Assembly: GCF_036971445.1 (NCBI RefSeq)
Contig: NC_091471.1
Coordinates: forward strand, 176,762,001 to 176,826,000
DNA: 64,000 bases
Reading direction: 5' to 3'
Origin: Narcine bancroftii
Lineage: Eukaryota
Below are positions 9,001 to 58,534 of this stretch, piece after piece. A program made the translations under genes and the position numbers. The notes under the pieces are model-generated. The model worked only from the letters and a program-made list of their open reading frames with translations. It had not been told where the DNA came from and did not search any database. Positions within the stretch are counted from its first letter, which is position 1. Each line of letters starts with the position of its first letter.

Positions 9001-9045
9001 AAATTGCAGGGGCTCTGGCAGAAATATTCAAAATGTCCCTTGCCA
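6040..9045 (+). mobile_element. Degenerate CR1 LINE 5' portion (ORF1, endonuclease, start of RT), interrupted by a solo LTR
   Basis: Esterase-like ORF1 remnants, GGVALLIRENITAV, LYYRPPN and ADKSPRPEKVFPQTLREAS. Confidence 0.88.
7911..8273 (-). mobile_element. Solo LTR (363 bp) inserted in CR1
   Basis: TGTTAGG...CCTTACA termini and imperfect 4-bp TSD caat/ctat. Minus-strand TATAAAA (~8065) and AATAAA (~7985). CR1 sequence resumes directly after. Confidence 0.75.
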
Positions 9046-9369
9046 CAAGTAATAATGATCATTGCAATGATTATGTTCTTTATTCCACAGCAAAGCCGGA
9101 TGCCATGAAAATCTCCCCTATAGTTTTGTGCTTCACCTGAGTGGCAGTGGATGTATTCAGCTAGGATATAAACAGCATGAAGGAAATAGCTGAGGGGGAA
9201 TTAAGCTCAATTTTTGTTGAAACACACTTCCAAAAACTTTAGCATTAGAGTTCCACTTCTTCAGAGAGGTCTAACATTCTGACTTTATTGCTGGCCAGAA
9301 GACCAAGAAGATACAGAACAGTCTGATCGCTCAGGATGTCAAACTAAATACATCACAGGAAAGGTAACA

Positions 9370-10005
9370 TAGTTAATAAGATTGTGTTCTGCTTTGGTCA
9401 CCAAACTATAGGAAAGATATCAATAAGATTGAAAGAGTGCAGATAAAATACTAGGATGTTTCTGGGACTTGAGGAATTGAGTCAGAGGGTAAAGGTAATG
9501 AAGTTCTGCAAAGAGAGTTTGGGGTGTTAGGACTTACAGGGTTGTAATCTCAGGAATGCTACAAGTACCATGTGAAGTTAGAAATGGGATGATAATGGTT
9601 AGGTCCTTATTCCATTGAGTGTAGAAGAATAAGGGGAGATTTGAAAGAGCCATACAAAATTATGTAGGATATAGATGGAGTAAATTCAAGCAGGCTTTTT
9701 CCACTGAAGTTAGGTCAGACAAGAAACAGAGGACATAGGTTAAGGGCGAAAGGAGAAATGTTTAAAGGGAACATTAGGGGAACTTCTTCGCATAGAGAGT
9801 GGTGAGAGTGTGGAACGAGTCACCAGCTGAAGTGGTGGAAGCAGACTCAATTTTGACATTTAAGAAAAATTTGGACAGGTACATGGATGGGAGGGGTATG
9901 GAGGGCTTTGGTTCAGCTGCAGATCAATGGGACTTTTCAGAATAATAGTTCAGCACAGACTAGATGGGCCAAAGGGCCTGTTCCTGTGCTGTAGAGTTCT
10001 ATAGT
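9370..10005 (+). mobile_element. CR1 3' fragment
   Basis: ORF2 C-terminal remnants and 3' tail gggcctgttcctgtgctgtagagttctat. Confidence 0.8.
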
Positions 10006-10254
10006 TTTCACGTTTTTATATGACATCAAAATTCTGACTTGCTGCAGCCACTCATGTACAGTATACAAGATACATCAACAACAATCTTATAAATTAAATT
10101 TGGAGAGGTTCAAGAGCCTGATAGTTCTTTGGAATTTTTTAAATCCAAAGATGCTGGAATTCAGCCTTCTGTACTTTCTACTTGAATGTAGCAGTGACAA
10201 GGACGATAATGGTGAAGATTTTATTGTCATGCACATTATGCAATGTCACTAGGA

Positions 10255-10875
10255 TAGTTAAGAAGACTTGTGGGCGCTGGGCTTTATTAGTTGGGGGATT
10301 GAGTTCAAGAATCGAGAGGTCATGTTGCAACTCTACAAATCTCTGATGAGACCACATTTCGAGTATTGTGTTCAGTTCTAGTCACCTCATTACAGGAAGG
10401 TGTGGAAGCTATGGAGAGGATGCAATATGTTGCCTGGATTGGAAAATAAGCCTTATAAGGCAAGGTTAGCATAGCTAAGGACTTTTCTCTTTGGACTGAA
10501 GGAGGAGGAGAGATGACTGAATAGAGGTCTACAAGATTCTGAGAGGCATAGAAAAGGTAGACAGCCAGAACCTTTTCCCCTGGGCAGCAATTGCAAACTC
10601 CAGAGGACATATACACAAAGGGAGGACAGTTTAGGGGAAATGACAGGGGTAGGTTTATTACACAGAGAGTTGTGAGTGCCTGGAATGCATTGCCAGTGGT
10701 TGTGGTGGAGACTGAAACATTAGGGGCTTTTAAGAGACTGTTAGACAGACACATGGATAAAATAAAAATAGAGGGTTATGAGGTAGAAAGGGTTTGTTTC
10801 TTTTTTGTTGGGAATACATAGCTCGGCACAACATTGAGGGTTGAAGGGTCTGTACTGAGCTGCAATGTTCTACAT
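10255..10875 (+). mobile_element. CR1 3' fragment
   Basis: ITQRVVSAWNALP...AFKRLLDRHM and CR1-type 3' tail. Confidence 0.8.
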
Positions 10876-11107
10876 TCTGTGTACAATCACTGCAGCATTT
10901 CAAGAAGGAAGCTAACAACCAGCTTCTCAATGATACTGATGGGCAATGAACAACGAGTATTTGGAAATCTATATCCAAGAGAACATGGGTGCTCAGTCTC
11001 TGCATTTAAAACTGAAATTGATGGCACATCATATGTCCAAATTGTTTAAAAACCATACATGCTTTCTGAAACATAGTGTGCAATATCTGGGTTTGGCATT
11101 CTTTTAC

Positions 11108-11179
11108 CTGGATCTGGGATCGTAAGTGGGTCAAAGAGTTTTTTAGGTCTGTGTACTTGCTGGGTGAGCTTTCATCTGC
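11108..11179 (-). CDS. Candidate 72-nt exon (ADESSPSKYTDLKNSLTHLRSQIQ)
   Basis: Acceptor ttctgtttgttctacactcag| and donor CAG|gtaaaa. Phase 0-0. Confidence 0.55.
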
Positions 11180-11833
11180 CTGAGTGTAGAACAAACAGAA
11201 CGTAAAATTAACTGACAATTTCAGTGTTTCACTTCCAATAATTTGTTTAGTAAAAATGCTGTTCTGATAATTAGTGTATTGTCATATGCATTGTACAACG
11301 TAATAATAAAGAAATTCTTATTTGCTGCACCCAATCAGATACTTTGTTATTAAAAAAAACTACCATAGTTTACATTAAATTAAATTAAAAAGATAATAAA
11401 TACAAAAGATTTAACAGGTTTTATGTGCTTTTTTTAGTGTAGTCCATTGAAAGGTTCATTTGGATTATCTGGAAAAGACACTTTCAAGATATTAGATCAG
11501 TGGTACACGCTGAGAGCTCAACAAATCTCATTTAATGAATCTTGACAAAAAGTCCCAACCTGAAACATTGGCTAACCATTCCTCTCCATGGATGCTGTTT
11601 GTCCAGCTAAGTCTCACCACCAGCTGCTCATTGCTTGCTCTCATTTAATACAATTCTGTCTTTTATTTATGTATAGAAATACTCTCTAATTGTATTTATA
11701 TTATTGATAGAGATATTAATGAAATTGTTCATCTCAGATATTTTTAATAGTGAAATTGAGTTATACTCAGTAGGAACAGTGAAAACTATAACTTATTTGA
11801 TACAGAGTAAAATCTTTCCCACGGTTTGTTATG

Positions 11834-12852
11834 AGCTCCTTTCACACTTGCATCCCACTAAATTTGTTGTTTAGTGTCCTGGGATAGGAATGGGGGGTGG
11901 TTTGGCTTTTCACACTTGACCACTCCTAACTGGGGCACTGAACGCTTTCACACTTGCAAGGAGCCATCCCAGGGGTTAGGACTGTTCTAACTTCTTCTGG
12001 TGACATCATGACATGTCGAGTGATGGTGGACCTGCCCTAAATCCTGATCAATGTATTATGAATTGAACAAAATTAAACATGTACAGCACAGTATGAGCCC
12101 TTCAGCTCCTGTTGTTGCTGTGCCGACATATATAAACCTTTATAAAGAATCGTGGGAAAGTGCTAGCAATAAATAGCAATAGCGGACAATTTTTAAACAT
12201 TTGGTAGCGCTGTAGTGCTCAACTTATTTAACGTTGGGAAGTTTGCAGAACTATTATGTACAATTTAAACAGCATGGAAAAGTTGGCAGCACTATTGCGT
12301 ACAATTTATAAATACCATGGGGAAAAAGCAATGGTGGGCCTGCCCTCCCTGAACTCTATGGTGGAGAAAGGGCTGTATGTCTGGAGCATTCATAGAGGTG
12401 TTTCTCTGCTGCAAGGCATTCTGGGAAGTCAAGTCCACCACCTTTTTTTCCCACAGCCTTTATAAGTTATGTACTATAGCGCTATCAATTTTCCCACGCT
12501 GTTTAAAAATTGTCCACTATTGGTATTTATTTCCTCTGTCTTTCTTTCTCTCTCTCCCCCACTGCGACTTTCCCATGGCAAAGTTTTAATCTTTCTTCCT
12601 TCACATTCCTGCACTCACACAAAAACTTGGGTCATTTCAATCCCGCAATCCAATTACTCATTTCACACTTGCCTGATTGCAACGCCAGTATCTGCAGGCG
12701 CCAGGAATTGTACTGGGGTCGAGGCCGTCAATCCCCGGCGTGAGATAATGTTATCTGATGCCGGCGTTGAGCTGATTTTGCTTTCACACTGGGCACTTTA
12801 AAGGCCGACTGGGGGTTAATTCCTGGGATCACTTGCAAGTGTAAAAGGGGCT
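11834..12852. mobile_element. Non-autonomous DNA transposon, PIF/Harbinger-like
   Basis: TIRs AGCTCCTTTCACACTTGCA / TGCAAGTGTAAAAGGGGCT, 3-bp TSD ATG on both sides, repeated TTTCACACT subterminal motifs. Confidence 0.75.
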
Positions 12853-13746
12853 ATGGATTATCCAAAAGTTTTGGAATTAATACAACAACTAATCTTCAAA
12901 AAACCTGTTCAAATGCAAATTAGAAGCAGTAAGTAGTTTTGAAACTGTAAGGGCTGCTTTGTAAACAAATAGGTAAACATAAAACAATGGTGCTGGAGAA
13001 ACTCAGCAGGTCAAGCAGCATCTATAGGAACTATATTCAAAGTTGACCCCAACATCTGAAGATTTTTTTGTTCAAAAATAATGGAGCTGGTTACTTGGCC
13101 TACATCAAACCAACATCAAAGTAAATTATTTTGTGCCACTGTGGCAAAGATTAAGGATGTTTCCAGACTAGATATTTTTGTCACTTTGTACTAAAATATT
13201 ATCTGAGGCATATTTCCTCTATCAATAACTCAGATATTTGTGCATTCAGAAGACTCAGCCCTCACATCACTTAATTGTGAGTGCCTGGGTTCTCTGTCAT
13301 CAGACCATCTGTGTGAATTACTTTGTCCCAGCAAAGATATTTGAACATTCTGAAGTCTTTTGTCAGTGTGCTTCTTTTGAAAATTTATAATCCAAAGGAA
13401 CAATTGTTAGGCTCAAAATATTGAAGTAAACTATGTCATTGCAGAGTTTGACCTTGCTGTTATTTTTGCTCTAGTATAAAAAAGTGATATACTAGGAGTG
13501 TGAAGAGCTTCCAATGACAGAGCTTCCAAGGGACAGTCTGTTTGCTTTGATGAATAAAGACCTTTTGCATCCATCAGATTTATGTCCAGTGACTCAATTC
13601 ACAGTCACAACAGAGTCCGGCATCTGAATCCAGTGCTGATCCATATATGATAGCTGATACAACTGAGGAACAAATGTTAATTATCCTGGAAGATTTTGAA
13701 CTGCATGTCATCAAATTCATGTCAAGCAAGTATTAAGAATGTTTAC

Positions 13747-13803
13747 CATATGTTGAAACACTGTGTTGCAGAGTCTGCTCAGGTGTTTATAATTTGAAGA
13801 TGC
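13747..13803 (-). CDS. Candidate 57-nt exon (ASSNYKHLSRLCNTVFQHM)
   Basis: Acceptor ttttttccctcttcag| and donor ATG|gtaaac. Open only in phase 0. Confidence 0.5.
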
Positions 13804-15249
13804 CTGAAGAGGGAAAAAATATAATTATTTCAACAACTGTTTCAAATACAAGCTTGCTTTCTCCTCAGCCCCCTGGAAGAAGATACTTCACACTTGCAAG
13901 GTACATGTGGACAAAGCAGCTGAAAACTGGAACTGGTGTAAAAGACTTCTCAGTGTGATTTGACACGGACATAAAAATCTGTTGTTGAAATTAATATCAA
14001 CCATTCAATGCCACTGATCTCTCAACTTTAACAGGAGTCGAATGAAGTACACAAAACTCAGCAGGTCCCACAACATCCAAGGCAGGTAAAAGGCAGTCAA
14101 CGTTTTGGGAATGAGACCTTCATCAGGAATCGAAAAATGAGACGGACCCCTGAATAAAAAGGTGGGGCTGGAGGGAGGGAGTAACATGGGCTAACAGGTA
14201 AGACTAATAAGTTCTGTGACTAACTGGGAATGAAATTGGAAGAGCACAGACAATGTTCTTCCTGACTGATATCTAGGATCATAGCTGTAGAATAAGGGGA
14301 GGCTATTTGAATTGAAATATGGAGACATTTCTTTACAAAGAGGAGGGTGAACCTTTGTAATTCTCTACCAAGGAATGATGGTGAATATCACCAAGCATTG
14401 TGTTCAAAACAGGAGTTTTTGAGGATAAAGGAATATGGAGATAGACCTACAAAACATCATTGAAGTTGATCAGTCAGAAGAAGCCAAATGGCCTGCTCCC
14501 TTCTATGTTACTTGTGTTGTTATGTGACATTACTGGTGGAGGTAACCGTGTTAGAGCAAACTTGCAGAATACAGGTGAACTGAAACTATGGAATTCAGGA
14601 CTTAGCTCTTGCCTCTCAAACCAAGATAATTTTTCACTGAGTAACCTTAGGAATAGCCTCAATGTTTTCCTCTGCAGAAAATGTCTCAACTGTGATTGGC
14701 CCACGTAACTACATTAAAATCCAGAGTCAAGCAGAAGCTGGAGGGACTCTGAAGGATTGAGCAGCATCAGTGGGGGGAAGAGAAAATAACTGTTGGCATT
14801 ACTTGTCAAAACCATTCATCAAATCAACCAATGAAGGAACTTGAAACGTTGTCAATTTCTTTATCCTCCGCAGATGCTGTCCAACTTGCCGACTTCCTCC
14901 AGTAGTTTGATACTTGTTCAAAGTTTCAGCATCTGTGGCACAAATGCTTATTGGATCCTTCCCCTCTCCACTCCACCCCACGACCACCACCATGATGACC
15001 ATACCCCAAGGTGGTCACACTAGCCTTGGTCTACATTGGTGCAAAACTCCGCACGACCTTATGGTTCTGTAACTTCTGTACATTCACTATGGATCTGCAG
15101 CTAGGTACAACCATTCAGGGATCATTAATTTAATTCCCACTGCACGGCTCCTGGTTTTATTCCATATTGACCTGCTATTTAGCTTAATGTGATTGCCCTA
15201 TGTAAGATGTTACAAAGAAGAGTCCTTTCAAGCCAGTTCCACTACTACC

Positions 15250-15860
15250 TAGATTGTGCCAATCTTCAAATTCAGATCCATTTTTCTGCACTCTGGTAAC
15301 TCTCTTCCCTTTCTCGATCTCTCTCCATTTCAGGAGAAAAACTATCTACAGACATCTTTTACCTCAACTACATTCCTGTCTCCAGTAAAAATGTTATTCC
15401 TCTCCCTCATTTCCTCCGTCTCCATCACATCTGCTCCTTGGATGAGACCTTCCATTCCAGGAAATCTGAGATGTCCTCCTTATTCAGAAAACATGACTTC
15501 CCCTCTATGCATTAACTCAGCCCTCACTCACATCTCCTCTATTTCCTGCACATATGTCCTGACCCCATCCCCCCCAATCCAAAACACAACAATGACAATG
15601 TTCCCCTTGAATTCACCTACCACCCCACCAGCTGCCACATGCAACATACTCTGTGACTTCTGATACCTAAACGGGATCCAACCACTAGACACATCTTCAC
15701 CTCCCCTCTCCACTTCGTATAAAGATCACACACCCTGTGTTACTCCCTCATTTACTCATCTCTTCCCACCTATCACCTTCTTGGAACCTAACCCTGTGAC
15801 CAAAAGAAGTGTAACACTTGCACTTGCACCTCCTCCCCCACCAATATTCTGGGCCCCAGT
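15250..15860 (+). mobile_element. Penelope-like element, RT C-terminal part (continues at 19093)
   Basis: LPFLDL-type thumb remnant; sequence joins (gggccccag|gtccttccaagtg) to the GIY-YIG part at 19093. Confidence 0.7.
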
Positions 15861-18800
15861 CTTTTTTTTAAGCTAAAAATATTTTTCCACAATCAATTAT
15901 TTACAAAACAGAAAACCATTCAAAGTATTTTTATACCTATAATGTCAGTCATATCTGTACCTTCTCATCAATGTACATTGATACGTGTTCTCTCAATACA
16001 CCATTACCACCACTGTAGCACCTTGTCATTTATTTCCCCCTCCCTTATTGGTTGAGGGGCTTCCCCTCAGTCTCAGCCCCTCAATGCCCAGAAATGGGAG
16101 GACTGTGGTCCATCCCAACAGCGCCCTTGTGTTGGCTGCACCCAGCATATGTGCATCCCTCAGCACATACTCCTGAGGCCAGGAATGTGCCAGTCTGCAG
16201 CATTCACAGACTGATACCCCAGTATGCTGAAAGACCAACAGGTTTTGAGCAGCTTTCACTGAGTTGATGGTCTTCCAGCAGTTTTTGATGTCTTGACTCT
16301 GAGTGCGTCTTCGAGAACAGCCCATATATCAGAGAGTTCTTGATCACGCTGCCCCTGCAGATGAATCATGAAGAGGACTTTTGCATCCTTCTCCACACCC
16401 TTTTTTTGTGAATCTGCATTCAGCAAAGAGGTGGGCAACAGCCTTCTCTCCATAACAGTCATCTCGAGGACAACATGCATGGAAGGATCTGACTTAGAGG
16501 CCTCGTCTCATGTTCAGCCAGGCCAAGTCCTGGTGCTTGTTGGTGAGCCCTGGTGATGAGGCATTCTACCAGATGACCTGAATAGTCTGCTCAGGTGATC
16601 ATCCTACTGGGTTCATCGAGTCCTTGTCTCTCAATATCTGCAGGATGTTCCGTGCTGAGCTACTGCTCAATAGCTTTGTGGTCAAGGTGTTGTTTTGAAA
16701 AAAATTCCCAAAATGGATAGATGATGTGCTAAGGTCCAGCTGACTGGGACATTCTGTGGCACAGGTAGAACCTCAGAACATAGCGGCACTTGGTGCCCTC
16801 GTTCTTTGATTCCATGCACAGCCTGAAGCAACCACATACAAAGATGGTCATCAGGATGAGGACCGTATTGGGTACACCTTTGCCCCCATTATCTAGCAAC
16901 ATATACATGGCACCGCTTTGACCCTATCCATTTTTGGTCTCCCAATGAAATCAGAAAACTGCTCTGCTGATCGCCAGGGCAGAGGTGCAAGGAATAGGCT
17001 AGATCTGTGCCACTTACAGCAATATTGAGAACACCTCACACCTGATGACCATGTTCTTCCCAGTTAATGGGAGGAAGCGCCACACCTACCAACCCACTTT
17101 TTGGTGAACCTTTGCGATCCGCTCTGACCAATTCTTGTTGCTGGCATTTTCAGATGGTCAGATCTGACTATGAAGGAGATGGCGGACCACTCAGACCAGA
17201 TACCGAAGAGCATTGCCTCAATCTTCCTCTGGTTACCCTAGTGCCTGATGTGGACTCAAAATGCCTGTATATGCTGGTTGGTCTCCAGACTGATCGTTTA
17301 TCTGAACAGAAGACAACAACGTCATCCATGTGTAGGAAGTCCTTACTCTGGGCACCTTGTGACAGAATATAGATATGTTTTTGGGAGATAAATTGGAGAA
17401 GGTTTTTTTAGTGTAGGTCACAAACAAACACTTTTAAACAGATCTTAATTGAAGTGCTGGAGCTCTGCTCATGGTAGCCATGTTGGGGCCAACAGCCTTT
17501 GCAAAAGCTTTGGAGAGTGCCCAAAAGACTTCACTAATAGATTGTTGTTTACAAAAAGGCAATAGATGAAAGAACTTGTCGGAGCCATAGATTGTCTGCA
17601 GGGAAACTTGCTGTTCTAAGAGGGTCATGTGATTTTGCAAGCAGAGAGAGTCAAACAGGCTTTCTCTCTGAGAGAAAGAGAGAGAGAGAGAAAGACAGAG
17701 ATAGAGATCAGTTCTACAGCTTAACAGTCAGCAGCAGCAGCTGGGATTGGAATAGGACAAGCTGGCAAGCTTGTGGAAAACTCCATTTGGAAGACAGGTT
17801 GTGAGTGCTTGGTTCAGCCTGGTCAAAGCAAGAGGAGAAGACTGGCTGTCTAATGTTTCACTTGAAATAAGGGAAACAAAAAGGATCTCTGTGGTGACCC
17901 GAAAGAAAGAGGTTATCATCTGGAAAACCCTGAAGGGGGAAGTTTCTTCGGCAAGACACTGAAGTGGCTGATTAAAAAGGCATCAGTGTGGGTGTCCAGC
18001 GTATAACAAATCTCTCTCTGAAAACCGACAAGAGCCTTCTTAAGTGGAAACCATTTACCTTTCAAGCACCAAAGCCTGGTGAACTTTATAAATGTTAAAT
18101 TCTGTGCACAGTATAAGAATTGCCTACAACCAATGAACTTGGAGGAATCAGAAGTGAGATTGGACTGTGAATCAAAGAACTTTTCTGAACTTACACACAC
18201 ATTACATACACATGCGCTTAGAATTAGAAGGGGGCTAGGTTAGGTTAGTTAAATCAATAGTGATAAGTTAGAGTGTGATTCTATTTTCATATTTAAAGAT
18301 TATTAAAAGCAACTTTGTTTAAGTAACCATTGTCTTGGTGAATATTGCTGCTGGATTTTGGGGTCCTCTGGGCTCGTAACAGCCTCCACTTCCTGGTAAC
18401 TCCTGTTTTGCATTCATCCTTCTTGTTGGATTCAGCAAAGGGCTCTATGCAGCACACAAATAAGACTGGAGATAGCAGGCAACCTTGCCTAACTCCAGAT
18501 GATGGAGAAGCAATTTGTTTTCCACCCATTGATTTGGACTGCGCTACAGATGTATGTGCAGAGCAGTTTAATACAATTCCAGATTCCCTCCCAAAGCCCA
18601 TTTTGGAGAGCACATCCATCATTTATTGTCAAAAGCCTTCTCCTGGTCTAAGCTGACCAGGCAGGAGTTTACCCCACCATCCTGTTATGTAGGTGATGGT
18701 ATCCCTGAGCAGTGGGAGCTTGTCAAGTCATCTTCCTGCCTGGAACCATGCAAGTTTGATTGGGTGGATTACCTGCCCAGGGCAGACTTGACTTGTCTGG

Positions 18801-19092
18801 CAATGGCCTTGGACAAGATTTTGTCATCAACGTTTAGCAATAATATAGGCCTCCAATTCCTGATATCATCCTTCTCTTCCTTCTATTTGAAGATGAGGGT
18901 AATGATGCCCTTCCTCATGGGGTCTGCTATGCTTCCTGCCAGGAGCATAGCATTTTATACTTCCAGCAGCTCCGGGCCCACTCAAACCCAGCGAGGCGTA
19001 TACGACTCTGTTGTTAGGCCATCGTTTCCGGGAGTCTTCCTTGATCCACAGGAATGGACAGAGTCCATCAGCTCCTCCAGGGTAATTGGCTG
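15861..19092 (-). mobile_element. Tx1/L1-clade LINE, 5'-truncated and degenerate, split by a solo LTR
   Basis: Minus-strand NWRPILLLNVD, LVSLDQEKAFD, SGVRQGCLLSPVLF and HMDDVVVF motifs. T-run at 15862 is the poly(A) tail. Confidence 0.85.
17358..18381 (+). mobile_element. Solo LTR (~1.02 kb), probably Gypsy-type
   Basis: TGTGAC...GTAACA termini, imperfect TSD acct/gcct and ATTAAA near the 3' end. Interrupts the Tx1 RT between the QG and DD motifs. Confidence 0.75.
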
Positions 19093-19740
19093 GTCCTTCC
19101 AAGTGAAGCAACACTTCACATGTAAATCTAAAGGAGTCATTTACTGCATCCAGTCCACCCAATGCAGCCTCCTCTACATCAGAGAGACTGGACACAAACA
19201 AGAAGATCACTTCACTGAGCACCTTCGCTCTGGCTACCGTAAAGCAAGGATCTCCAAGTGGCTAATCACTTTAATTCCACATACCAGTGGCACCCTGACA
19301 TATGTGTCCATGACCTCGCGTTCAATTTAAGGCCACCCACAAAATGGAGGAAACAACACCTTATATTTGTTCTCAGCAGGCTCCAAGCAGACAGCATCAA
19401 TATCAACCAACAATTTTTATTGACCACCCCTTCCCTGGTCGGTCAGTCGGTCTCTCTCTCTCCCCTCTTCATCCCTTTGTCTCTCTTCCTGCTCCCCAGC
19501 ACCTCCTTCCCCTTTTCTCCTATCCTCTCCCCATCCCCTCATCTTATTTCTCTTCTATCTCCCCATTTGTATCCACCAAATCCCTTTATCTCACCCTTCT
19601 CACCTCTCACCCCAACCCACTCTTTTATTCAGGCATCTGTCTGATTTTCTGTGCTCCTGAAGAAAGGCCTACTGCCTTTTACCTTGTATGGATGCTCAAA
19701 GACCTGTGGAGATTCTTCAATAGTTTTTTTGTGGCAAATT
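19093..19740 (+). mobile_element. Penelope-like element, GIY-YIG endonuclease and 3' terminal region
   Basis: FQVKQHFTCKSKGVIYCIQ..LLYIRETG..DHFTEH, then a pyrimidine tract and ctgaaga..ctgtggagattcttc terminal motif. Confidence 0.8.
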
Positions 19741-20182
19741 GTCTAATTTTCCACAATGCCAATTCCCTTCACTCAAGTCTTCACAGACCCATATCATTCA
19801 TCCACTCCTTTAACTATTGAAATACTATTTCAGTGTTCCCGCTTCTTTATTTTTCTCTCTCAGATATTAATTCTTTTAATAAAAAAAAATCTGAATAATA
19901 ATTGTTCGGATCCTGTGATTCCACCGCTGGACATAACTCAATCCTTTGCCTGTTGCCATATTTTGAGCTTTGATCTTTCACATTCTCCTTTTATCATCAC
20001 TGACAAATTAATAATTCATCGGTCAATCCTGCTTTACATTTGCTGAATGCTACCACAACTAATGGAACAAGAAGCATGCAAGTAAAAGAACATTTTGCTA
20101 AATATCATCTGACCCATGAGCAGAAACGCTACAATCATCTATATTTTATGAAGAAATAATCTACTATCAAAATGATAATGAC

Positions 20183-20293
20183 CTGATATTTTCCAAAGCT
20201 GTTTTGCATAAATTGCGATCTGTGGAAATGTACAAGCGTTGGTGCAGTAAAATCAACTGAGATCTGGAGTGGCTTCTGGCTCTCCTGCTGGCC
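20183..20293 (-). CDS. Possible 111-nt internal exon of the minus-strand gene
   Basis: aattatttcag| ... CAG|gtcatt, open in two frames. Weak donor; non-repetitive sequence. Confidence 0.3.
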
Positions 20294-20992
20294 CTGAAAT
20301 AATTGTTCCCACCAATGTTCAAATCCAAGCAACAATAATTAAAACATACAATCAACTAGCTCCAATGCTTGGTGAAAATGAGCCTTTATGCTTCTTAGCT
20401 ACAATGACCACAGAGTGGACATTTGCCTCAGCTATTTTTTTGTTGGACATCAATGCAGTAACAGTTGTATTTTGTAATGGAGTTTCAAAATGTAGTTACA
20501 TTGACATTAATAGAAGGGAGAAGGATATTTCAGAAAACAAATACAATTCAGAGTGCAACTTAAGATGAGCATGTACAGTACTTCTTAATATTTAAATTGT
20601 AAATTCAGGATTGTTCTTTTAAGGTTGCATGACTGTCAAAGACAAACATTGTTCTGTATCTATTTGTTCGTTTATGAAGCTCATATACTTTGCTTCAGGC
20701 TCAGGATGCATTGCCATGAACTAGTATGCAAATTAAATCAGAGCTGAAAGGAGTTATGGTAAGATTATCTATTGGAAGCTGCATTACTGACATGCCAGGA
20801 ACTGTGCCTTCCTCGCTGCTGTCTGACCAGAAACTGCAAGCCAGGAAGATGACAGAAATTCCCGCCCTGCCCATTGCTGCAGGCTGCCATGCTGGAAAGA
20901 TGGATTCAAGAAACCGGCTAAAATCCCATTCTCCTCATTGCTGCACTGGGAATTAGAACACAGTACGGTACAGACTACACCAACCATGTTAC

Positions 20993-21027
20993 TTTGATGA
21001 AGGGTTCAAGCCCGAAACATCGGTTAT
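20993..21027 (+). ncRNA. Relic minimal hammerhead-ribozyme-like motif in a Penelope terminal repeat
   Basis: TTGATGA-a-GGG ttcaag CCC-GAAAC atcg GTT: core CUGANGA (C>T), stem II, GAAA, minimal stem III and NUH triplet. Confidence 0.5.
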
Positions 21028-23577
21028 GCCTCTTAATCTTTGCTACATAAAATACACTGTTTGACCTGCTGAGTTTCTCCAGCATTGTGTCTTTATTTCA
21101 ACCATGCGTCTGCAGACAACACCAACCATGAAGACAATTTAAACTAATTCCACCTGCCTGCACATAGTCTATATCCCTCTATTCACTGTCTGTTGGTGTG
21201 TTTGTCTTAATGCCTCTAAAACATTGCTGTTGCATCTGCTTCCACCACCTCCCCTGGAAGCGTGTTCCAAGCACCTACTACTCTCTGTATAAGAATTCAC
21301 AACTTGTAAATTATTTTTCCATTCTTACCTTAAACATATCCTCTCCAGTATTTTATGTTTCCACTGTGGGATGAAGACTCTGACTTCACCTTCTCCATGC
21401 CTCCCATAATTTTTTTTTCAGATCATCCCTCAGCTTCCAGCACTCCACAGAAAACAATTCAAATTTGTCTAACTTCTCTTTCGAGCCAATACTAATCCTT
21501 GCCCTCTGCCATCACCCCAACAGTGAACCCCTATGGCTCATTGTCGAAAGACTGTCTGTGAGTGTAGTGTTGGGCAGGTCAGGGAGATCAATGCATCCAC
21601 TCAGATATGTACCCATGGCTGAACTGATGATGGCACAGTGAGTGCAGGCCATTGCTGGACATCTGTCAACCTTTGCTGTGGGAATCCCAGCGGAGGGCAA
21701 TGTTTCACCAGGTTTATGACACAGTATTGATGCAGAAAAAGTAGTGGTTTTATGTCTCTAGTACAGCATGGGAAAGGCAGTGGTCCACACCAGGTTCCTG
21801 ATATTCCAGCCGCAGACTGACTGGAGGATGATTTTACTGGGGATACCAACTCCTCAGTATTAACACTGGAGTCCAAATGTACTATTTCCTTCAGTGGAGA
21901 AGCGTTATGCACACCATTTTTGATTTTGCCTGAGTGCAAATTGTTTATATGCAACTTATGAAAAAATAGCCCCTTCAGTTTGCAGGTGGTGAAAGGATAA
22001 CTATGAATCGATAGAAAGCAAGGATGCTAGTTCAATATAAAGGGCAACACCTTGAACTCTCATGTTATCAAGGGACTTCAGAAAGTTTCTAATGAGTAGC
22101 AAGCAAAGGATTTTCCTTGGGGGCCAAATTATTATTTATCTCTCAGTCAACATCTTGCTAGATAATCAGACTGATGTAATTAACTCTAGGCTGTCTGGAT
22201 GCTCTGCTATCTTGAAAACCATGCTGTGGCCAATGTTTATCCCTCATCAAAATAATTTGAGATTATTGTTCAATATGAGATTAACAATTTTGGGACCAGG
22301 TTGCCACATTTGCCTATTTACAGCAGTGAATATATTTTAAAAGCTTTTGATTAACTTGATTAAGAAGTCCCATATAAATTAAATTATTTTTTCTTTCACT
22401 TCTGTGAATGGGATAGAGGTATTGCGGTTTCTCTTAATTATGGCAGTCTTCCTGCCTTGGGTTTTATATTTAATGACAGCTGTCAGTATATATTTGGCAT
22501 GCCCTCAGACTAGGCATAATCCGTCCCATCTGTTCCTACTGTATAGCTTCATTTAAAATTCAATGACATGACACACCAAAAACAAATGCACTTAAATAAA
22601 ATATTACTTAATGTGAAAGCTGCATCCAACACTTTGCAAAGGAAAATGGTCTCATGTTCAACCTGGAACAAATTTTGATGAAGGAACAGTGAATGGCACT
22701 GGTAACAATGTTTCATGAGTCTTAACTGCTCCAAAAGTGCTCATAGAAATCCAAGGATGAATGGAGCAGCTGTTAAGAAGTTGGAAGATTGATTAGAAAA
22801 AATATAAGGAGATTTGTAGCAAATTCTGGACCAACCCATCAGGTCAAGCTTTGTTATTCAACTGCAAGAACTAGAGTACATTAATCATTCTCATTTGACG
22901 ATGACACTGTAAAGCAACACAGAATAAGTAAATTTGCCTGTTGGCTATGGTGTAATGTGGAGGCTTGGTGATATGCATTCCAATATTCATTAATAAATTG
23001 GAATTCCTCTCAATTATCAACGATGCTATGTCTTATTTACAATTGCCATGATAAACGCATGGCATTGTGTTAAAAAAAAACAGCTCACCACTAGGTGTCA
23101 CAAATTATGTCAATGAATACCACATTCCAATATTTTCTTTGCTAAAAATGCTTACTCATTGACAATTGGAATGGAACTCAAATCTAACACTGGCTCTTCA
23201 TTCACTCATGCAGGAGATGAGATCAGCGGATTCAGTCTAAGTTGGAAATCTATCTTGAAATGAGGTGATGTCAAATGTTATAATACAGTCTGTTTCGCTT
23301 TGGAAGGAGACAATTATAGCAGTGTTAAGAATGTTGGAAGAAATCTATTACCTTCATAAATTGAATGTAGACAAGGAATAACTCATCAATAACTGAGTTT
23401 GTAGAACACAGAGAAGCAATTGCCAATTCCCCTCTTCAGTTTCCAAATAAACAATTCCCTGATATGACATGGCATCTTGTTTGCTTGACAGAAACACTGT
23501 GACATTACATCAACGATGCCAGTAGCCATACATTCTGTTGGTCACAACTATATTTTTGTCACAGCCTTGCACTTAAT

Positions 23578-24362
23578 GTCACCATGACTAAGGAGCTGAT
23601 TGTTGACGATAGAAAAGGAACACCAGATGTGTATGATCCATTAATTATTGGGGAGCCACGGTGTAGAGGATGAGAACATTTAAGTTCTTGGGAGTCACTA
23701 TCTTGGAGGATCTTTCCTGGACCCAACATACTAATGGCATCATGAAAAAAAGCACATCAGTGTCTCTACTTCCTCTGGACTTTGCAGAAGTTTGGTAAGA
23801 CATGGGATACCCTGGCAAATTTCTACAGATGTCTGGTGGAAATTCTGCTGACTGGCTGCATCACACTCTGCTATGGAGGCACCAATGCCTCCGGCATAAA
23901 ACCCTGCAAAAAGTAGTGGACACAGCCCAAGACATCACAGGCAAACCCCTTCCCACCATCAAGAACATCTATAGGGAACACTGCCGTCAGAGAGCAACAG
24001 CAATCATCAAGGATCCACACCATCCAGCACATCTCTGTTCTCACAGCTACCATCAGGAAAGAGGTACAAGTGCCACAAGACTTGTACCACCAGGTCAGGA
24101 ACAGCTGCTATCCCTCCACCATCAGTCTCTTTAACAACAACTTAATCAGAGACTCATTTAAAGAATCTTACTTTTGAACTTCATTGTTTTTTTTCTGCTC
24201 TCTGTATTGCACATTCAGTTGTTTTCACTTGTTTACATGTGTACATTGTGTAGTTTTTTTGGTACTACTAATGAGTGATAGTTCTGCCTGACTTGCAGAA
24301 AAAAGAATCTCAGGGTTGTATGTGATGTCATGTATGTACTCTGACAATCAATCTGAAATTTG
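23578..24362 (+). mobile_element. Rex1/Babar LINE 3' fragment
   Basis: TKELIVD, FKFLGVTI..DLSWTQH, AHQCLYFL and IIKDPHHP remnants; tail ctgacaat..ctgaaatttgaa. Confidence 0.8.
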
Positions 24363-24461
24363 AACCTCCTTCCTCAGCTTCTTAATCTCATTTACTTTAT
24401 ATTATTGCTTTTTTCCTCAAATCTATTCCAAGACCCATTTGCCCATATCTCAATTCACACA

Positions 24462-24935
24462 GCATCGAGTCCACGCTGCTGAAGATCCAGCTGCGCTGGA
24501 TGGGTCACGTCTCCAGAATGGAGGACCATCGCCTTTCCAAGATCGTGTTATATGGCGAGCTCTCCACTGGCCACCGTGACAGAGGTGCACCAAAGAAAAG
24601 GTACAAGGACTGCCTAAAGAAATCTCTTGGTGCCTGCCACATTGACCACCGCCAGTGGGCTGATAACGCCTCAAACCGTGCATCTTGGCGCCTCACAGTT
24701 TGGCGGGCAGCAACCTCCTTTGAAGAAGACCGCAGAGCCCACCTCACTGTCAAAAGGCAAAGGAGGAAAAACCCAACACCCAACCCCAACCAACCAATTT
24801 TCCCCTGCAACCGCTGCAACCGTGTCTGCCTGTCCCGCATCGGACTTGTCAGCCACAAACGAGCCTGCAGCTGACGTGGACTTTTACCCCCTCCATAAAT
24901 CTTCGTCCGCGAAGCCAAGCCAAAGAAGAAAGAAG
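24462..24935 (+). mobile_element. RTE-clade LINE 3' end, young copy
   Basis: Intact LRWMGHVSRMEDHRLSKIVLYGEL...CNRCNRVCLSRIGLVSHKRAC, (AAG)-rich tail and perfect 10-bp TSD AATTCACACA. Confidence 0.92.
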
Positions 24936-26471
24936 AATTCACACAATGCTCCACCCCCATCTCTCTTGTATTCTCTGACCTACAATGGCTCTTGGCGAGT
25001 ACACAGGCAATTTTTAAATTTTTTTATCCTTGATTTCAAGTCCATGGCCTTCCCTTTCATATTCCTCAAACTTTCTCCAGCCCTGTAATCCTCCAAGGTT
25101 CATTATTCCTCCATCTTAATTTAAATATCTCCACAATTAGTCATCAAGCCTTTAGAAATCAAAATCTTATCTCCCCAGAATCTCCTCACCTTTCCTTCCT
25201 CCTTTAAGGCATTCCTGAAAACCAATTTGTATGTGTAAGTATTTGGTCATTGACCTGAATCTTTCCTTTTGTATCTAAAGCGAGGCTTTGGCATGTTTAA
25301 CCATCCTAATTGCAAGCATTCTTGAATCCCATAAGAATATAACTTGAGGATTTGATGCATTCAAACTATAGACGTCAGTGCACAGTGGAGCCAAAGATTC
25401 AGACATCCTCAGATTAACTTATTATGTAAGAGAAAATCAAATTATCAATCACTGCAATGCAGAATAGAGTTTTTGACATACACCAGGTTGTTCTGTTTAT
25501 TCTCTCAGGAGCTTTAGGGTCTATTTATACAAGATAGAATTATCCAGGCAGCTGTATTGTTGCTGCAAATGAAATTGGATCTTGGCTTTCTGTCAGCAGT
25601 ATCTGCTTTGAAAGACCAAATCTGGCATATTTGGTATGATCTCCAAATCTCTAGCATTGTTTCAAATGTCATAAATGCCGCGTCAGATTCAAACCTGGGT
25701 TGCTGGCACTGTAATAGTGTTGTGATGACCACTATCCCTCAGGCACCAACTTTCCTGATAGTAAGAAGTACCCGTCTTTTCACTTCAGTTTGTCGATAGT
25801 ACCCGAAGTGCAGCAGAGGATATCTCAAACCTACTTAGATTGGTGTCACAAGCACCCAACAATTAGCAAAATTATAATTTCTGTTTCACCAATTACCCAG
25901 TGGATAGATGGGTCACCTTCTCCTTCATCCTTAAACTTGGTGGAATCTGTGATATAGGTGGGATACCACAGCAACCCTTATGAAATTCATGGTCATTACA
26001 TCATAGCAACTCACAAGAAATATATAGGCTATCCAGACAGCTTAGTGTTCATCAATTGTCTTATTTAGTCGTCTTCTGTGATATTAGCAAACGAATAACT
26101 TTTAGTCTGAATACCAGAGAAAATCGTTTTAAATCGACTTGTTCTGTTGTCACCTAGATCCATGGGAGTCAAGGTATTGTACTTCACATTTAACTAGCAT
26201 GTTCACTGTTGTTCAGGTTCATGCCTGAATCATCCATTTCTTTCAATCAAGTCTGATCATCAGTCATAAATCTGTCAACAGGCTGAACATATGATTAAAT
26301 TCATATAATAACATTTACTTTGCTAACTAACAGATTAGAAACAATAAGACAATAGTCTTGTGCCAAACTGCAGCATCTTTAAGCCAACACTCAACTTTAT
26401 TTTCAATAACTGAAAAGCTACAGTAACAGAACAATTTTGAGAGTAAAAAGAGACAGACATATTGTTCTCAC

Positions 26472-26531
26472 CTCTGGTGTAACTCCCTCCTGTAGCATCT
26501 CATCTGAACTGAATTGGAATTCACAATTCTG
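26472..26531 (-). CDS. C4orf50: 60-nt exon (QNCEFQFSSDEMLQEGVTPE), NAGNAG acceptor
   Basis: T-rich acceptor ...gtaaattctag|CAG and donor GAG|gtgaga. Phase 0-0, open frame. Confidence 0.65.
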
Positions 26532-30664: not shown

Positions 30665-31381
30665 AAATAATGTTTCATTCATTTTACTCTTGTCCTCCTC
30701 TGAATCGTCCTGTGGTTCTTCACCTTCTGGGACATTTAGATCATTTTCTTGTTCTTGCCAATCTTTCATCTCTCTTCTGAGCTTCTCATTCTCCTCTTCC
30801 AGGTCCTCGATTTGTTCTTGCAGGCTGCTCTCTGATAACTTCAGCTCATGGATCCGTGAGCGGAAGTCTTCCAGTTTACGTGTTAGGAAATTTTCGTTGT
30901 CTTCAGTTTGTTGAAGTCTTTCTAGGAGTTGCTCCTTTTCCTGGTTATTGATCTCTTCTTTTTCTAAAAGGTTCTTCACTTCATCCTGTAGGACCAGAAT
31001 TTGCTCTTTAAGTTGCTTTTCCCCATCCAACAGGCAGCTCCCCTTGTTGGCCAGATCCTTATTGTCCTCTGAATGACCTTTGCTCCTCCTGGTACATGCT
31101 TTCTCCAGCTTTGTGAACTTTTCTGTAACTTGTTGCAGCTCAGTTTGCAGCACAATGCTGGTAGCATTTAGATCGATTCTCTCTCTCTCCAGTTTGAAGA
31201 CCTGATTCTGCAAGCACTGCTCACGTTCCCTCAGCTTCGCCATTAATTGCAGTTGTCTTTGCTTATAGTGTTCAAAGTATTCAGACTGCTTGTTCATCTC
31301 ATCCTCCTTCATCCTTAACTGATTCTGAACACGGCACACTTTTCCCTTTAGCATCTCTTCAGTCCTCTCTTTTTCTGTAAG
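30665..31381 (-). CDS. C4orf50: C4orf50-like exon, 239 codons, coiled-coil (LTEKERTEEMLKGK...NETLF)
   Basis: Acceptor cttcttatttaaag| (phase 0) and donor TTT|gtaagt. Overlaps the 236-aa ORF; the EKER...LREREQCLQNQVFKLER pattern matches recalled C4orf50. Confidence 0.85.
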
Positions 31382-34206: not shown

Positions 34207-34354
34207 TGTGTTTCTAAGGCTCCTCTCCGAAATCTGCAGACATCGGAGCTTTCCCGAGAGTTGCAAATCATTGGTTGTCAATTGCTGTGACTTGGAAGTC
34301 AAATCATTGATTTTGTCCAGAAGCTTTTGTTTCGTCTGTTCCAGATCTTCAATT
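34207..34354 (-). CDS. C4orf50: C4orf50-like exon (RIEDLEQTKQKLLDKINDL...ISERSLRNT)
   Basis: Acceptor tttgattgtttag| (phase 2, completes AGA) and donor ACA|gtaagc (phase 0). 148 nt, coiled-coil. Confidence 0.8.
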
Positions 34355-40310: not shown

Positions 40311-40871
40311 GATGTATATACTTGGTGACAATTTATCATGGTCAATTAACCTACATGCCTCCATGTCCTTGAGATGCGAGAAAGAATAAAATCGCCCAGG
40401 AAACCCCATAGATAGAATGTACAAACTCCATACAGCAGGAGGTCAGGAATGAACCCTGGTTACCAGAATTACTGCAGTTGTAAGACTGTTGCTCTTGCAA
40501 CTGCACTATAATAGTTTTGCTTTGGCAATTTGAGGTATCAAAATCAAAAAATCATGCTGGTTATTTTGGCCATTTTACCTGAAATGAAAAATGTTTATTT
40601 CCCCAATGGCTAGAAAATTTAACCATTTTAAAAATGATATTCAAAAGTCGCTCAGAAACCCAAGATTTCATGTGTACTTGAAATATTTTTAACAACCGCA
40701 GATTTGCTATATGAGAATTTTGAATAACTGATTATGTTTATTCCATGAATTTGAAGTTTTTACTTCTACTGTAGTCCTGATAAGGGACTTGTGCTGAGAA
40801 TGGTTATGCCACTTGCTTGGTGCTCTCAAATAAAGGCAGAGAAGACCACGTAAAATTCAAGTGTTGTCAGA

Positions 40872-41105
40872 AACGGTTGGTGTAGCGGTTAGCTCAAAAC
40901 CTTGACAGCGCCAGCGATCGGAACTAGGGTTCAAATCCCACGCTGACTGTACATTCTCCCTGAGCCTGCATGGGATTTCCCTGGGGGTTCTGGTTTCCTC
41001 CCACCATTCCAAACATATTGGGGGATGTAGGGTAATTGGGTATAAATTAGACAGCAAGGACTGATGGGCTGAAATGGCCTGTTACCGTGCTGTACGACTA
41101 AATTT
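40872..41105 (+). mobile_element. V-SINE/HE1-like SINE
   Basis: acggttggtgtagcggttagc..gggttcaaatccc head and ggcctgttaccgtgctgta tail. Confidence 0.7.
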
Positions 41106-41145
41106 AACTTGAAAATTTAAACAGAAGCAGAATTAGTGGTATTAC

Positions 41146-41429
41146 CTTCCTTGCAAAGTGGCCTCTGTCTTTACGAAGTTTCCAACGGTTTGCTTGAACA
41201 CCTTCTCAGATTGTGCAAAGTCCTCCAATCTCTGTTCAATATCATCAATTTCATGCTTATTGGTCTTCCATTCATCTTGTCGTGTCCCTTCCTTCTTTGC
41301 CTCTTCCAGGTCCTGTAATTGGCAGGAGGTACCAATGGTTATATATACCCTGAGTACACCTGTGCCTTCATCCCTGGGTGAAATGATATGATAACTAAAT
41401 TCTTGCATCTTATCGACGGAGGGCTCCAT
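41146..41429 (-). CDS. C4orf50: C4orf50-like coiled-coil protein, first conserved coding exon (MEPSVDKMQEFSYHIISP...ATLQGR)
   Basis: Resembles the tetrapod C4orf50 N-terminus as I recall it (MEP..FSY..P..G....V...I.TS...QD.E); not database-checked. Phase-2 donor AG|gtaata. Confidence 0.7.
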
Positions 41430-41640
41430 TCACAGTACCAGCAGTCTTGGCTGCGATATTGCAACAATGAACTGAACCCAAGGCAGAAGTTCAGCTGAGG
41501 ACTCTCCTGCCTTTGAATAGCTTGTTATTTTCATTCTGAGCCAACCTTTTGTTGATTTACTGGTCGTTAAATGCCTTTTCCAACAAAGGCGTAAAAATTT
41601 CCTTCCATTATTCATGGCTTTTTCAGTTCCACTGGACAAA
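41430..41640 (-). CDS. Candidate exon segment (phase-2 start) open until TGA 41432-41430; may instead be the 5' UTR of the C4orf50-like gene
   Basis: Acceptor aatttcacatgctag| followed by an open frame (LSSGTEKAMNNG...PRLLVL*) in the same frame as the downstream ATG at 41429. Confidence 0.4.
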
Positions 41641-42162
41641 CTAGCATGTGAAATTGATACAACATTCTAACATTACAGCATCAGAGAACTCTAACAATGA
41701 CCTTCTGAAGAGCTTTCACATTACATTGGGCAGAGGCCTCAATATTACAAATGCACAACTTTTATATTCAAATCAAAGTCATTGAAACAGTTTCTCTGAA
41801 CTGCTATTTTTCTCTCCAACATTTCTATGAAGGCCTGTTAGTTCTACTCCAGAATGTTTCAAGTCATCAATATCAGTAGTCAGAAAAAAGTACTATTCAG
41901 TAACTAACTCCTAACATCATCTAAAACACTGAAATCTGCAGACGATGTGATTGTAGTAAAAACACAAAAAAAGCTGGAGGAGCTGAGTACGTCTCGCAGT
42001 GTCCATCGGAGGTTACCTTGAAGAAGGGCACAGGCCCAAAACATTCATTACAGATTTTTATTTTCTATGGATGCTGCGAGACCTGCTGAGTTCCCTCAGT
42101 GTACACAAAAGTGCAAGAGAAACTGAGCAGGTCACGCAATGTCTATAGGAAGCAAAAATATA

Positions 42163-52517: not shown

Positions 52518-52585
52518 CAGTGACACTGACTCAGAGAGAGCTTGACAACCTCAGCTGGTTTGCCTTCAGGAGATGCAAGTAGAAG
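52518..52585 (-). CDS. Candidate 68-nt exon (LLLASPEGKPAEVVKLSLSQCH), phase 0 to 2
   Basis: Strong polypyrimidine acceptor (ttttctgtcctcttttcattcatcag|) and donor TG|gtactg. Phases fit the exon ending at 56252 and the acceptor at 41640. Confidence 0.5.
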
Positions 52586-56251: not shown

Positions 56252-58534
56252 CTGTTCCAAATCCTGGACTCTGACCTGCAGCAGTGAGTGATGCTCTTGC
56301 AGTGATCGCAAAGCTGCTTCCTTATTGTGTAGCTCTCCCTTCAGAATCTGTAACCGCTGGCATTCCTCATTCACCACGGCCTCCAAAGAAACAACCAACT
56401 GAGACTCTTTGGTGAGTTGAGTTTCAAGTGTTTTCTTTTCCTGCCGAAGAGTGATTTCTACTCTCTTTCTTTCACTCTGTGTTTCTTCTGCCTCCTCGAC
56501 TTGTTTTTCAAGCCGCTTAACATTCCCCTCAGACACTTCAAATTCTTTTATCCTCTTTTTCAATTGCATTTCGAGATTTTGCTTTGATGCTTGGCAGATG
56601 GACTCTTTGAACTCAAGCTCTTTAATCTTTTCGTTGAGCTCTGCTATCACACTTACTTGTTCCTTTCTCTTCAAAATATCAAGCTCAAAGTCATTGACTT
56701 TCTTTTGAAGTTGAGCTTCCAGGTTGATTTTAGCAGTTTCTAATTCATTTATCCTATCCATCTGCCACTGTGTTTTGACTTTAACTTCCCTTTCAAATTT
56801 TTCAAGATCAGAACACTTCACTTTCCAATGATGCAGTTCTTCACTCATCCCACGTTGTTTGATACCCAACTCTTCATTACGTTGTGCCAGCCTTCCCTGT
56901 GTCTCTTCCATTGCTTTTAGAAGAGACTCCTGGTTGGAAATTCTTGCCTGAAATTTCTCCACAGTTTCTTCTTTCATAATGAGGAGCTTTTCCATGCGAG
57001 CTATTTTTTCCTGCAAGTTCCTGGTCTCTCCTTCCTGTACCCCTTCGATTAGCTTTTCCAGCATCCTGCTTCGTTCCTGCAACCTCCTTTCAGACTCTTG
57101 TTGCTGCTCTTGTAATCTACCAATCTCCTCTGTTAAACACTCTACTTCATCTTTGAAGTGTTCCAGTTCTTCATTCTTTGCACTCAGCTCCATTTCAAAC
57201 CTGCTTCTCATTTTCACAATGAATCCCGCTTTGCCTATCTCAACCTCTGTCTTTTGGCTCAACTCAGCTTCACATTCTGCCTTTTCCTTGTCAGCCTCTG
57301 GAAAGGTGTCATGTTTTTTGTCCACCAGGGTCTCTGCATTCTTAACACTTCTCATCTTTTCTTCCATTGTCTTCAATGTCTTTCTTAAAGCCTCATCTTT
57401 CTCCATTAATTGTTTCCTTAGAGTCTTAATTTTGTCAGAATGCTTCCCTTCCACTCGCTTGAATTGCTCATTCATTTGCTGTTCAAAATGCTCCCACTCA
57501 TGGACAGTTTTTTCCAGATCTGAACATTGCTTTTTTAACTTCAGCTCGCAGCTCACTCTCTCTTCGAGGTCCATCTTTAATTTGGCAGTCTTTAATTCAA
57601 GAGCATTTCTGCATTCTTCTAACTCATCAATTTTCCAAAGCAAATCTTTGTTTATTTCTTCAAGCTGGGAATGAGCCTCATCTCGCTCCTTAATCTCATC
57701 AAGCAATGTTTTCATTTGCTCCTGGAACTCTTCCTCAGCATTTTCCTTGTCCATCTGGAGCTGCTCCACCTGCTTATACCTCTCCTCCAGCTTACTTTCA
57801 ATATCTTCCTTCTGCTTTGCCAACTGATCCAATTTGGCACAGCGCGAGCTAAGTAGGCTTTGATTCTCTTGGCTTTGCTGAAGTTGAGCTTCAAGACCCT
57901 TGACTCTTTCAATCAGCTCCTTCTCACTCATGTCTTTAAGCTTCAAAAGTCCTTCTAAATTTTTGACTGTTTGAAGGAGTTCTGCTTTGGCACTGTGTTT
58001 ACCTTCACTTTCTTCATCACTGCTGTGGGAATCCAGTGATTCTAATTCCCTCACCGAGGCCAGCTTGCCTTTAAGAGCATCGCCCTCAAAACGAAGTTGA
58101 TGGCACAGAATTTCCGTCTCAATCAGCTTATTCCTCAGAGTTGCTATCTCTTCCTTTCTGACCTCCTGTTGAATTACATACACCTTTAATTTCTCTTCAA
58201 GAATTTTCTGATTGTCAAGAGCTTCACTCCCTGTGAAATTGGGCTCTGCTAGCAAATTGACAAATTTTAAAATATTATCTTCAAGTTCTGCTATCCTGTT
58301 GCCTCTGCATTTGTTTTCCTCTTTCAGTGTTATCAGGTACTCTTGTAAAGTTTTGATATTTATATCAGTCATTTGTTCCCCTGGAAAGGACTCAAAATGT
58401 CCTTTTTTCTCAGGTTCTGGGGGAGACAACACATGTTCCTCTGAAGGTGGTGAGTCCTGTAATTGTATCCTCTTATCTTCAGCATCTTGCCATTTGTCCT
58501 CAGCACTCTGTGTTTTTTTAAGTTGGTTCTCCAT
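56252..58534 (-). CDS. Large coding exon (761 codons) of an E/K/Q/L-rich coiled-coil protein; either an upstream part of the C4orf50-like locus or a separate gene
   Basis: Uninterrupted 802-aa ORF with heptad-like composition. ATG at 58534 has a good Kozak context (gtgATGG). Coiled-coil character ends at the phase-0 donor CAG|gtaggc at 56252. Confidence 0.85.

Follow-up and report, generated by a model that had tools for sequence, protein, structure and literature searches.

A window of 64,000 nucleotides from the ray Narcine bancroftii very probably carries, on its minus strand, part of one C4orf50 gene with two alternative N-termini: a long form, in which an upstream coiled-coil exon (e1) is spliced directly from its donor at 56252 into an acceptor at 41312 (56252>41312), and a short form starting at the ATG at 41429, the TGA next to this ATG being likely untranslated (Table 1). 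As judged by comparison with homologous proteins, both the ATG at 41429 and the acceptor at 41312 are real and mark conserved alternative N-termini. This corrects the gene structure of the uncharacterized C4orf50, for which databases give one of the two N-termini per species. Rays, skates and sturgeon seem to have retained both, the same 117 bases being coding in one form and a splice acceptor region in the other. We did not find the two N-termini, or the split-gene link described below, stated in the openly accessible papers searched.

Table 1 Features of the C4orf50 locus (window positions, unless prefixed C8)
Feature	Position	Strand	Remarks
JAKMIP1, last two coding exons	C8:176827914-176827964, 176828252-176828317	-	Stop of the tail-anchor exon 7.4 kb upstream of the e1 ATG
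Exon e1, coiled coil; first coding exon (761 codons) in the long form	56252..58534	-	Orthologs 55-76% identical; two contigs end at its donor CAG|gtaggc (56252)
77-codon tail used by NCBI model P0101	55778..56008	-	Private: in no other protein of the 158 compared
Proposed bridging exon	52518..52585	-	Unsupported; donor borders a dispersed repeat; joining to 34354 gives a stop
69-codon stretch before the TGA	41433..41640	-	Single-copy DNA without protein match; putative intron, 5' UTR or promoter region
TGA	41430..41432	-	Putative 5' UTR or intron; ends no conserved reading frame
39-codon N-terminal extension of the short form	41313..41429	-	In the long form these bases are the intron's 3' end
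Dual-use exon, donor AAG|gtaata at 41146	41146..41429	-	Short form: whole, from the ATG; long form: from internal acceptor 41312 on
167-nt core exon, phase 0 to 2, common to both forms	41146..41312	-	tblastn of orthologs; X1 junction; skipped in X2 contig
Exon e3, 148 nt, phase 2 to 0	34207..34354	-	Ortholog mapping; entered straight from e1 reads Asn-stop
Exon e4, 717 nt, coiled coil	30665..31381	-	Ortholog mapping
Further small C4orf50 exons near 26531-26472, 13809-13747, 11194-11108 and 5328-5200	5200..26531	-	Alignment limits, not exact splice sites

Across the junction the minus strand reads CTG GTA CTG TGA ATG GAG CCC, with the TGA (41432-41430) directly 5' of the ATG, as a first-pass annotation of this DNA had described. 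That annotation had also assembled a chain from 58534-56252, 52585-52518 and 41640 onward, which does stay open for 853 codons in the phases claimed, and had bracketed the stop with a donor (CTG|gtactg) and an acceptor (ttacag|GAC), both of which are present at those places. A stop directly precedes 97 of the 1,339 minus-strand ATGs in the window (7.2%); a TGA beside an ATG is ordinary here and no more than expected by chance.

Searching with e1 yielded 16 proteins of cartilaginous fishes, 1,481-2,663 aa long, and in 15 of them the chain also contains DUF4527 (PF15030). Mapped back onto the window, the orthologs use 58534-56252, 41312-41146, 34354-34207 and 31381-30665 and place nothing at 52585 or 41640-41313. 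Both flanks of the e1 join were present in 44 of 48 proteins in a first comparison; 42 of them join with a gap of 0, and two chimaera rows give a gap of -4 that stems from poor local alignment. The end of e1 together with the start of e4 was found in 87 of 158 proteins, mostly automated gene models and many of them isoforms of one gene, which corresponds to an independent count of some twenty species. The spacer between the two measures 99-107 aa in 86 proteins and 88 in one; 105 residues are expected for the direct splice and 195 for the route via 52585 and 41640, and none lies near 195. Species with the long form include sturgeon, paddlefish, gar, bichir, tarpon and eels, and no tetrapod long form emerged from protein searches taking up to 8,000 candidates each. 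The giant protein regarded in the first-pass annotation as a possible fusion isoform is, by this protein evidence, the normal fish gene: the upstream coiled-coil exon and C4orf50 do share one chain, but the path is the direct splice and not the proposed one through 52585-52518, 41640 and a 126-nt intron.

Translation of 52585-52518 and of 41640 onward up to the TGA, followed by readthrough, reinitiation or splicing of that 126-nt intron around the stop, is thus highly improbable. Its appeal lies in the open 853-codon chain, in the 78 codons that are open in frame before the TGA and in the acceptor tract of 52585-52518, which is strong (17 of 20 pyrimidines). Against this, 33 open phase 0-to-2 AG..GT segments of the intron 56251-41641 pass equal thresholds (at least 14 of 20 pyrimidines and a donor with at least 5 of 9 consensus matches). 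The donors at 52518 and 41439 are both the identical, weak CTG|gtactg, scoring 5/9 versus 6-7/9 for four homology-supported donors, where scores are simple counts against a consensus rather than the output of a trained splice model. The 78-codon stretch contains 18 AG acceptors in all three phases. The extra 90 residues occur in 0 of the 87 informative proteins, and neither the 52585-52518 peptide nor the 69 codons upstream of the TGA match any of the 158 proteins compared; the latter also lack a match in Pfam and have a single genomic match (41433-41640). Finally, neither of the two contigs leaving the donor at 56252 takes a stop-retaining route or enters 52585, thin as this sampling is, and a sense codon rather than a stop precedes the matching Met in bat C4orf50. 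Use of 52585-52518 as a mutually exclusive alternative to the 167-nt exon was considered separately and rejected, as joining it to 34354 leads to a stop at codon 784.

An adjoining stop and start is a feature of readthrough and termination-reinitiation junctions, and the DNA resembles them in this respect. Unlike them, it has no conserved upstream frame that ends at this TGA. Because the 69 codons before the TGA match no compared protein, the readthrough, reinitiation and nonsense readings all lose their basis. UGA-CUAG is a leaky stop-codon context for readthrough; no such context is found here, the actual one being TGA ATG G, nor is there conserved coding on both sides of the stop, as the 69 upstream codons match nothing and the ortholog spacer excludes them. 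Ortholog spacers and the 158-protein comparison likewise revealed no conserved, translated upstream ORF ending at the TGA that would allow reinitiation. We conclude that the abutting stop and start very probably play no part of their own in translation and that the TGA is likely untranslated, incidental filler. At the protein level, 41640-41430 shows no match and looks like unconserved intron or UTR, a possibility that the first-pass annotation had itself raised. The idea that a once continuous gene acquired a nonsense change, or that the TGA is an assembly error, carries practically no weight. It draws on nothing beyond the in-frame position of the stop; codons flanking the TGA are absent from the orthologs throughout, which leaves no continuous frame that could have been broken, and the gene is intact along the direct path.

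Four runs (X1-X4) were compared at the 56252 donor in the form of assembled contigs, which we only guess to be RNA. A contig of X1, a relative that is 90-95% alike in this region, passes from the donor into 41311-41282 with 1 mismatch in 30, which corresponds to the long-form junction. Thus, the orthologs and this contig both splice at 41312 and bear out the acceptor proposed there, while nothing in the contigs leaving 56252 supports entry into 52585. An X2 contig joins the same donor to 34354-34325 with 0 mismatches and at exact splice sites. This junction omits the 167-nt exon and shifts the frame, giving a stop at codon 763, two codons past the join. Each junction is represented by one low-depth contig (depth 4.2 and 7.3), and the sole junction without mismatch to the window is the skip 56252>34354, not 56252>41312. 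Internal use of 41312-41146 is hence seen in a relative and in the ortholog joins, not in a run identical to the window. X3 showed no junction and X4 nothing at 56170-56720, a lack of cover that is not proof of absence. Among the low-depth assembled contigs of the runs compared, no transcript over 41429-41313 was seen. A run search with 41146-41640 named no RNA dataset that contains it, a result to which we give no weight. Repeats overwhelmed an initial placement of contigs on 40000-59500 at 80% likeness, and nothing could be learned from the table of joints.

The X2 junction could be taken to indicate a real protein consisting of e1 only, with 762 aa through the skip or 838 aa through the tail at 56008-55778. 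The latter is used by the NCBI model P0101 from Narcine bancroftii, which is 100% identical to e1 and closes it as a separate gene. We regard an e1-only product as quite unlikely. A stop upstream of many junctions is the usual trigger of nonsense-mediated decay, and the skip product, seen in one contig, is most likely a decay substrate. P0101, whose 77-aa tail is private, is the only stand-alone e1 model among 27 matches of 418-5,193 aa, and it agrees neither with the 853-codon chain nor with the orthologs. For the chimaera gene (P0015/P0047/P0048), an older annotation gives a single model of 2,566 aa, where a newer one has two, of 1,481 and 1,080 aa. The annotation of this locus is unstable.

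Next, we inspected the 39-codon extension that begins at ATG 41429. It shares 64% identity with sawshark P0049, 46% with P0053, 38% with caecilian P0056 and 36% with bat P0067, and scores 73 bits against a profile built without it. The alignment starts at residue 1 of the sawshark, caecilian and P0053/P0068/P0070 proteins and at residue 4 of bat C4orf50; in most bat rows Met-Ser-Glu/Gly precedes the matching Met, and no stop abuts it there. The N-terminus is thus homologous to that of named C4orf50 proteins (P0049, P0056 and the P0067 cluster), which confirms the earlier view of ATG 41429 as a C4orf50-type start. P0068 and P0070 carry the extension, and the sequence that follows it agrees nearly or fully with the long forms of skate (P0006) and sturgeon (P0050); therefore, both N-termini appear to coexist in these lineages. 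Both are intact in the skate-like and sturgeon-like sequences and in this ray; no case of both isoforms being listed for one species was present among the 158 proteins compared. Three of the seven matches of a representative search (P0069, P0071 and P0072) were dropped as repetitive proteins without real alignment. An AlphaFold model of the 94-aa ORF (6 sequences, mean pLDDT 68.8) contains only a helix from residue 38 and predicts the extension, at low confidence, to lack regular structure, and is thus uninformative on the extension. The ESM Atlas gave no usable match for the 94-aa ORF, and Pfam only weak coiled-coil matches on pieces of the window.

The short-form start might also be ancestral but decaying in the lineage of this ray, which would then make the long form only, with 41429-41313 being just intron. 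In line with such decay, the extension has changed 4 of 12 columns that are invariant in six other taxa (D24G, N27R, V30I, W36C; the others have 0-2 changes each). The ATG has a pyrimidine at -3, a weak start context, with seven upstream ATGs within 270 nt, and no database protein of this species starting at ATG 41429 was present among 35 matches or the 7 representative matches. However, the frame is still open and the ATG intact, and identity to the skate-like P0068 is as high in the extension (30 of 39 residues) as in the core (38 of 55). We therefore consider this decay unlikely.

Under the preferred reading of two N-termini, the long mRNA would arise by splicing of e1 into the acceptor at 41312, whereby the TGA and ATG 41429 leave with the intron. 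The short mRNA would retain 41429-41313 and be translated from ATG 41429; conservation of the protein is observed, and the transcript is postulated. It would presumably be entered from a transcription start of its own just upstream of the ATG, making this a hybrid first-internal exon, and this ray would employ both forms. The predicted products measure ~2,500 aa (long) and ~1,700-1,800 aa (short), the rod differing in length by ~720 residues, and should have in common a coiled coil and DUF4527 plus an SH3, FN3-like, SH3 tail. Skipping of the 167-nt exon would add an mRNA with a stop at codon 763, most likely destined for decay. From their domain content, the proteins may serve as rod-like scaffolds or tethers. 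The two alternative beginnings are likely old.

Exons of the hybrid first-internal type, about 80,000 of them, are reported in human tissues in bioRxiv 10.1101/2021.05.27.446076 and PMC11797052. As in these, the exon described here would be internal in some transcripts and, putatively, first in others, with a change of the protein start. Unlike hybrid exons in general, its first part codes for 39 residues, is conserved from rays to bats and overlaps the pyrimidine tract of the acceptor.

Downstream of the window's alternative starts, exons account for 2,469 residues of a stingray isoform (2,596 in all) with no internal stop, and the gene extends ~85 kb past the low end of the window. PF15030 has a single genomic match (C8:176724153-176724338), on the same strand, downstream and inside the mapped exon series. 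A pseudogene reading was rejected, since the two stops in tblastn matches lie in alignment overhangs at exon edges. The gene resembles vertebrate C4orf50 (DUF4527, PF15030) in its N-terminus, downstream exons, DUF4527 and place behind JAKMIP1. In contrast to other vertebrate C4orf50, sharks, rays and early bony fishes add the upstream coiled-coil exon (761 codons here) and keep SH3, FN3-like and SH3 domains, the bat model P0076 having DUF4527 only. Pfam finds SH3 and Ig_RIMBP2 at the C-terminus of the long-form orthologs as well. A coiled coil followed by SH3 and Ig_RIMBP2 (PF25523) is reminiscent of RIM-binding proteins (RIMBP2, TSPOAP1), whose SH3 domains number three and whose FN3 repeats number two to three according to PMC7565545. 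Unlike these, the long form of C4orf50 combines two SH3 stretches with a single FN3-like domain and DUF4527, and it lacks RIMB1_N; P0001, P0006 and P0008 each show two SH3 stretches, one Ig_RIMBP2 and no RIMB1_N (compare P0108), and hence do not have the domain make-up of RIMBPs, whose loci lie elsewhere in this genome (C29 and C9).

Upstream of e1 and on the same strand lie exons for JAKMIP_CC3, and the remaining JAKMIP exons run to the tail-anchor exon. We take this gene to be JAKMIP1 rather than a paralog, an assumption based on human synteny and on bat C4orf50 P0080, which is filed as a JAKMIP1 isoform. A donor-like site (CAG|gttagt) 22 nt after the tail-anchor stop is a possible route for read-on splicing into C4orf50. 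Because the e1 acceptors are out of phase with the penultimate exon of JAKMIP1, no fused protein is predicted from a splice out of that exon. With the phase-0 donor tested, neither the acceptor at 58548 nor that at 58539 gives a JAKMIP1-e1 fusion in frame, and this possibility was rejected. Ahead of the e1 ATG, the two acceptor-like AGs (58548-58532) are phase 1, and a phase-0 entry reads a TGA overlapping the ATG (TGATG). Thirteen of 16 orthologs begin with Met-Met and would retain the TGA of TGATG, which may be chance.

With this arrangement, the short form, and perhaps also the long form, might be translated from JAKMIP1-initiated transcripts that are spliced past the JAKMIP1 stop, giving a two-ORF mRNA with JAKMIP1 and not e1 as the first ORF. 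The proximity of the JAKMIP1 stop on the same strand, 7.4 kb upstream of the e1 ATG, the donor-like site behind it, the name 'JAKMIP1 isoform X1' of P0080 and the invertebrate models described below, which hold both modules in one chain, would fit. JAKMIP1 is also the transcript most correlated with C4orf50 in human tumors (r=0.642; PMC13657826), although co-expression of neighbors has many causes. On the other hand, no linking transcript was seen among the contigs compared, the interval from the JAKMIP1 stop to e1 contains six AATAAA, and one contig of X1 continues without splicing over the e1 acceptors and start (58435-58658) with few differences, which fits e1 as a first exon, or else unspliced RNA or DNA. 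Such a JAKMIP1-initiated origin is improbable in our judgment.

The invertebrate models come from amphioxus (P0102/P0103), acorn worm (P0104) and snail (P0106) and are single chains of 3,700-4,900 aa in which JAKMIP_CC3 is followed by a long repeat coiled coil and then by an FN3-like/SH3 tail (Ig_RIMBP2 + SH3). Their N-terminal parts match the JAKMIP1 exons of this genome in order, with individually weak E-values. In each of the 6 invertebrate proteins tested, the last 450 residues do better against C4orf50 long forms (106-166 bits) than against shark RIMBPs (67-89 bits). A profile of the middle repeat, run without composition correction and thus of moderate support, gives 49 bits on e1, versus 7 on reversed e1, at most 14.5 in 20 shuffles and 10-18 on RIMBP N-termini; a strict regular expression of the repeat matched nowhere in e1 (0 copies). 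For the acorn worm there is a Rimbp entry of its own, the short motif of which is absent from 4 of 4 giant isoforms. Orthology of the giants was assigned by best hits on automated models rather than by a tree, with shark RIMBPs as the RIMBPs compared. These comparisons suggest that JAKMIP1 and C4orf50 probably descend from the two parts of a single gene of ancestral animals, built as JAKMIP, long coiled coil and SH3-FN3-SH3. Unlike the giants with their single frame, JAKMIP1 of this ray ends in a tail-anchor exon, with e1 acceptors out of phase. If the link holds, it tells where C4orf50 comes from and assigns it a role that can be tested, that of the SH3/FN3 tail lost from JAKMIP1. The full proposal would be that the ancestral gene was split in vertebrates by the tail-anchor exon and new downstream starts, is still one transcription unit, and has C4orf50 translated from JAKMIP1-initiated two-ORF mRNAs; as a whole we hold it to be doubtful. 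If true, the bicistronic idea of the first-pass annotation would be right, with JAKMIP1 as the first ORF. PMC3765260 describes the JAKMIP family as vertebrate-specific, and a term search of a JAKMIP1 preprint (10.1101/2025.10.21.683757) returned no mention of C4orf50.

Further resemblances were observed among these families. Hydra P0105 has weaker JAKMIP-like matches and three SH3 stretches. In blastp, the N-termini of shark RIMBPs match the giants weakly (E 4e-4 to 6e-3), and a sea-anemone Rimbp N-terminus, from the PMC7565545 supplement, resembles by eye the JAKMIP N-terminus of the acorn-worm giant P0104. RIMBP and JAKMIP-C4orf50 may be ancient paralogs.

The dispersed repeat that borders the 52518 donor has copies at 52514-52380 and 51324-51191, which are 99% identical over 134 nt and 1.2 kb apart; the pair is a recent local duplication. 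Elsewhere in the window, the GC-rich stretches 37650-39970 and 47200-50470 hold broken ORFs that, by eye, we presume to be pieces of retroelement RNase H and integrase, and the fragments at 549-941, 3498-4100, 24386-24874, 27316-27693 and 42338-43102 are presumably LINE-like and Tc1-like.
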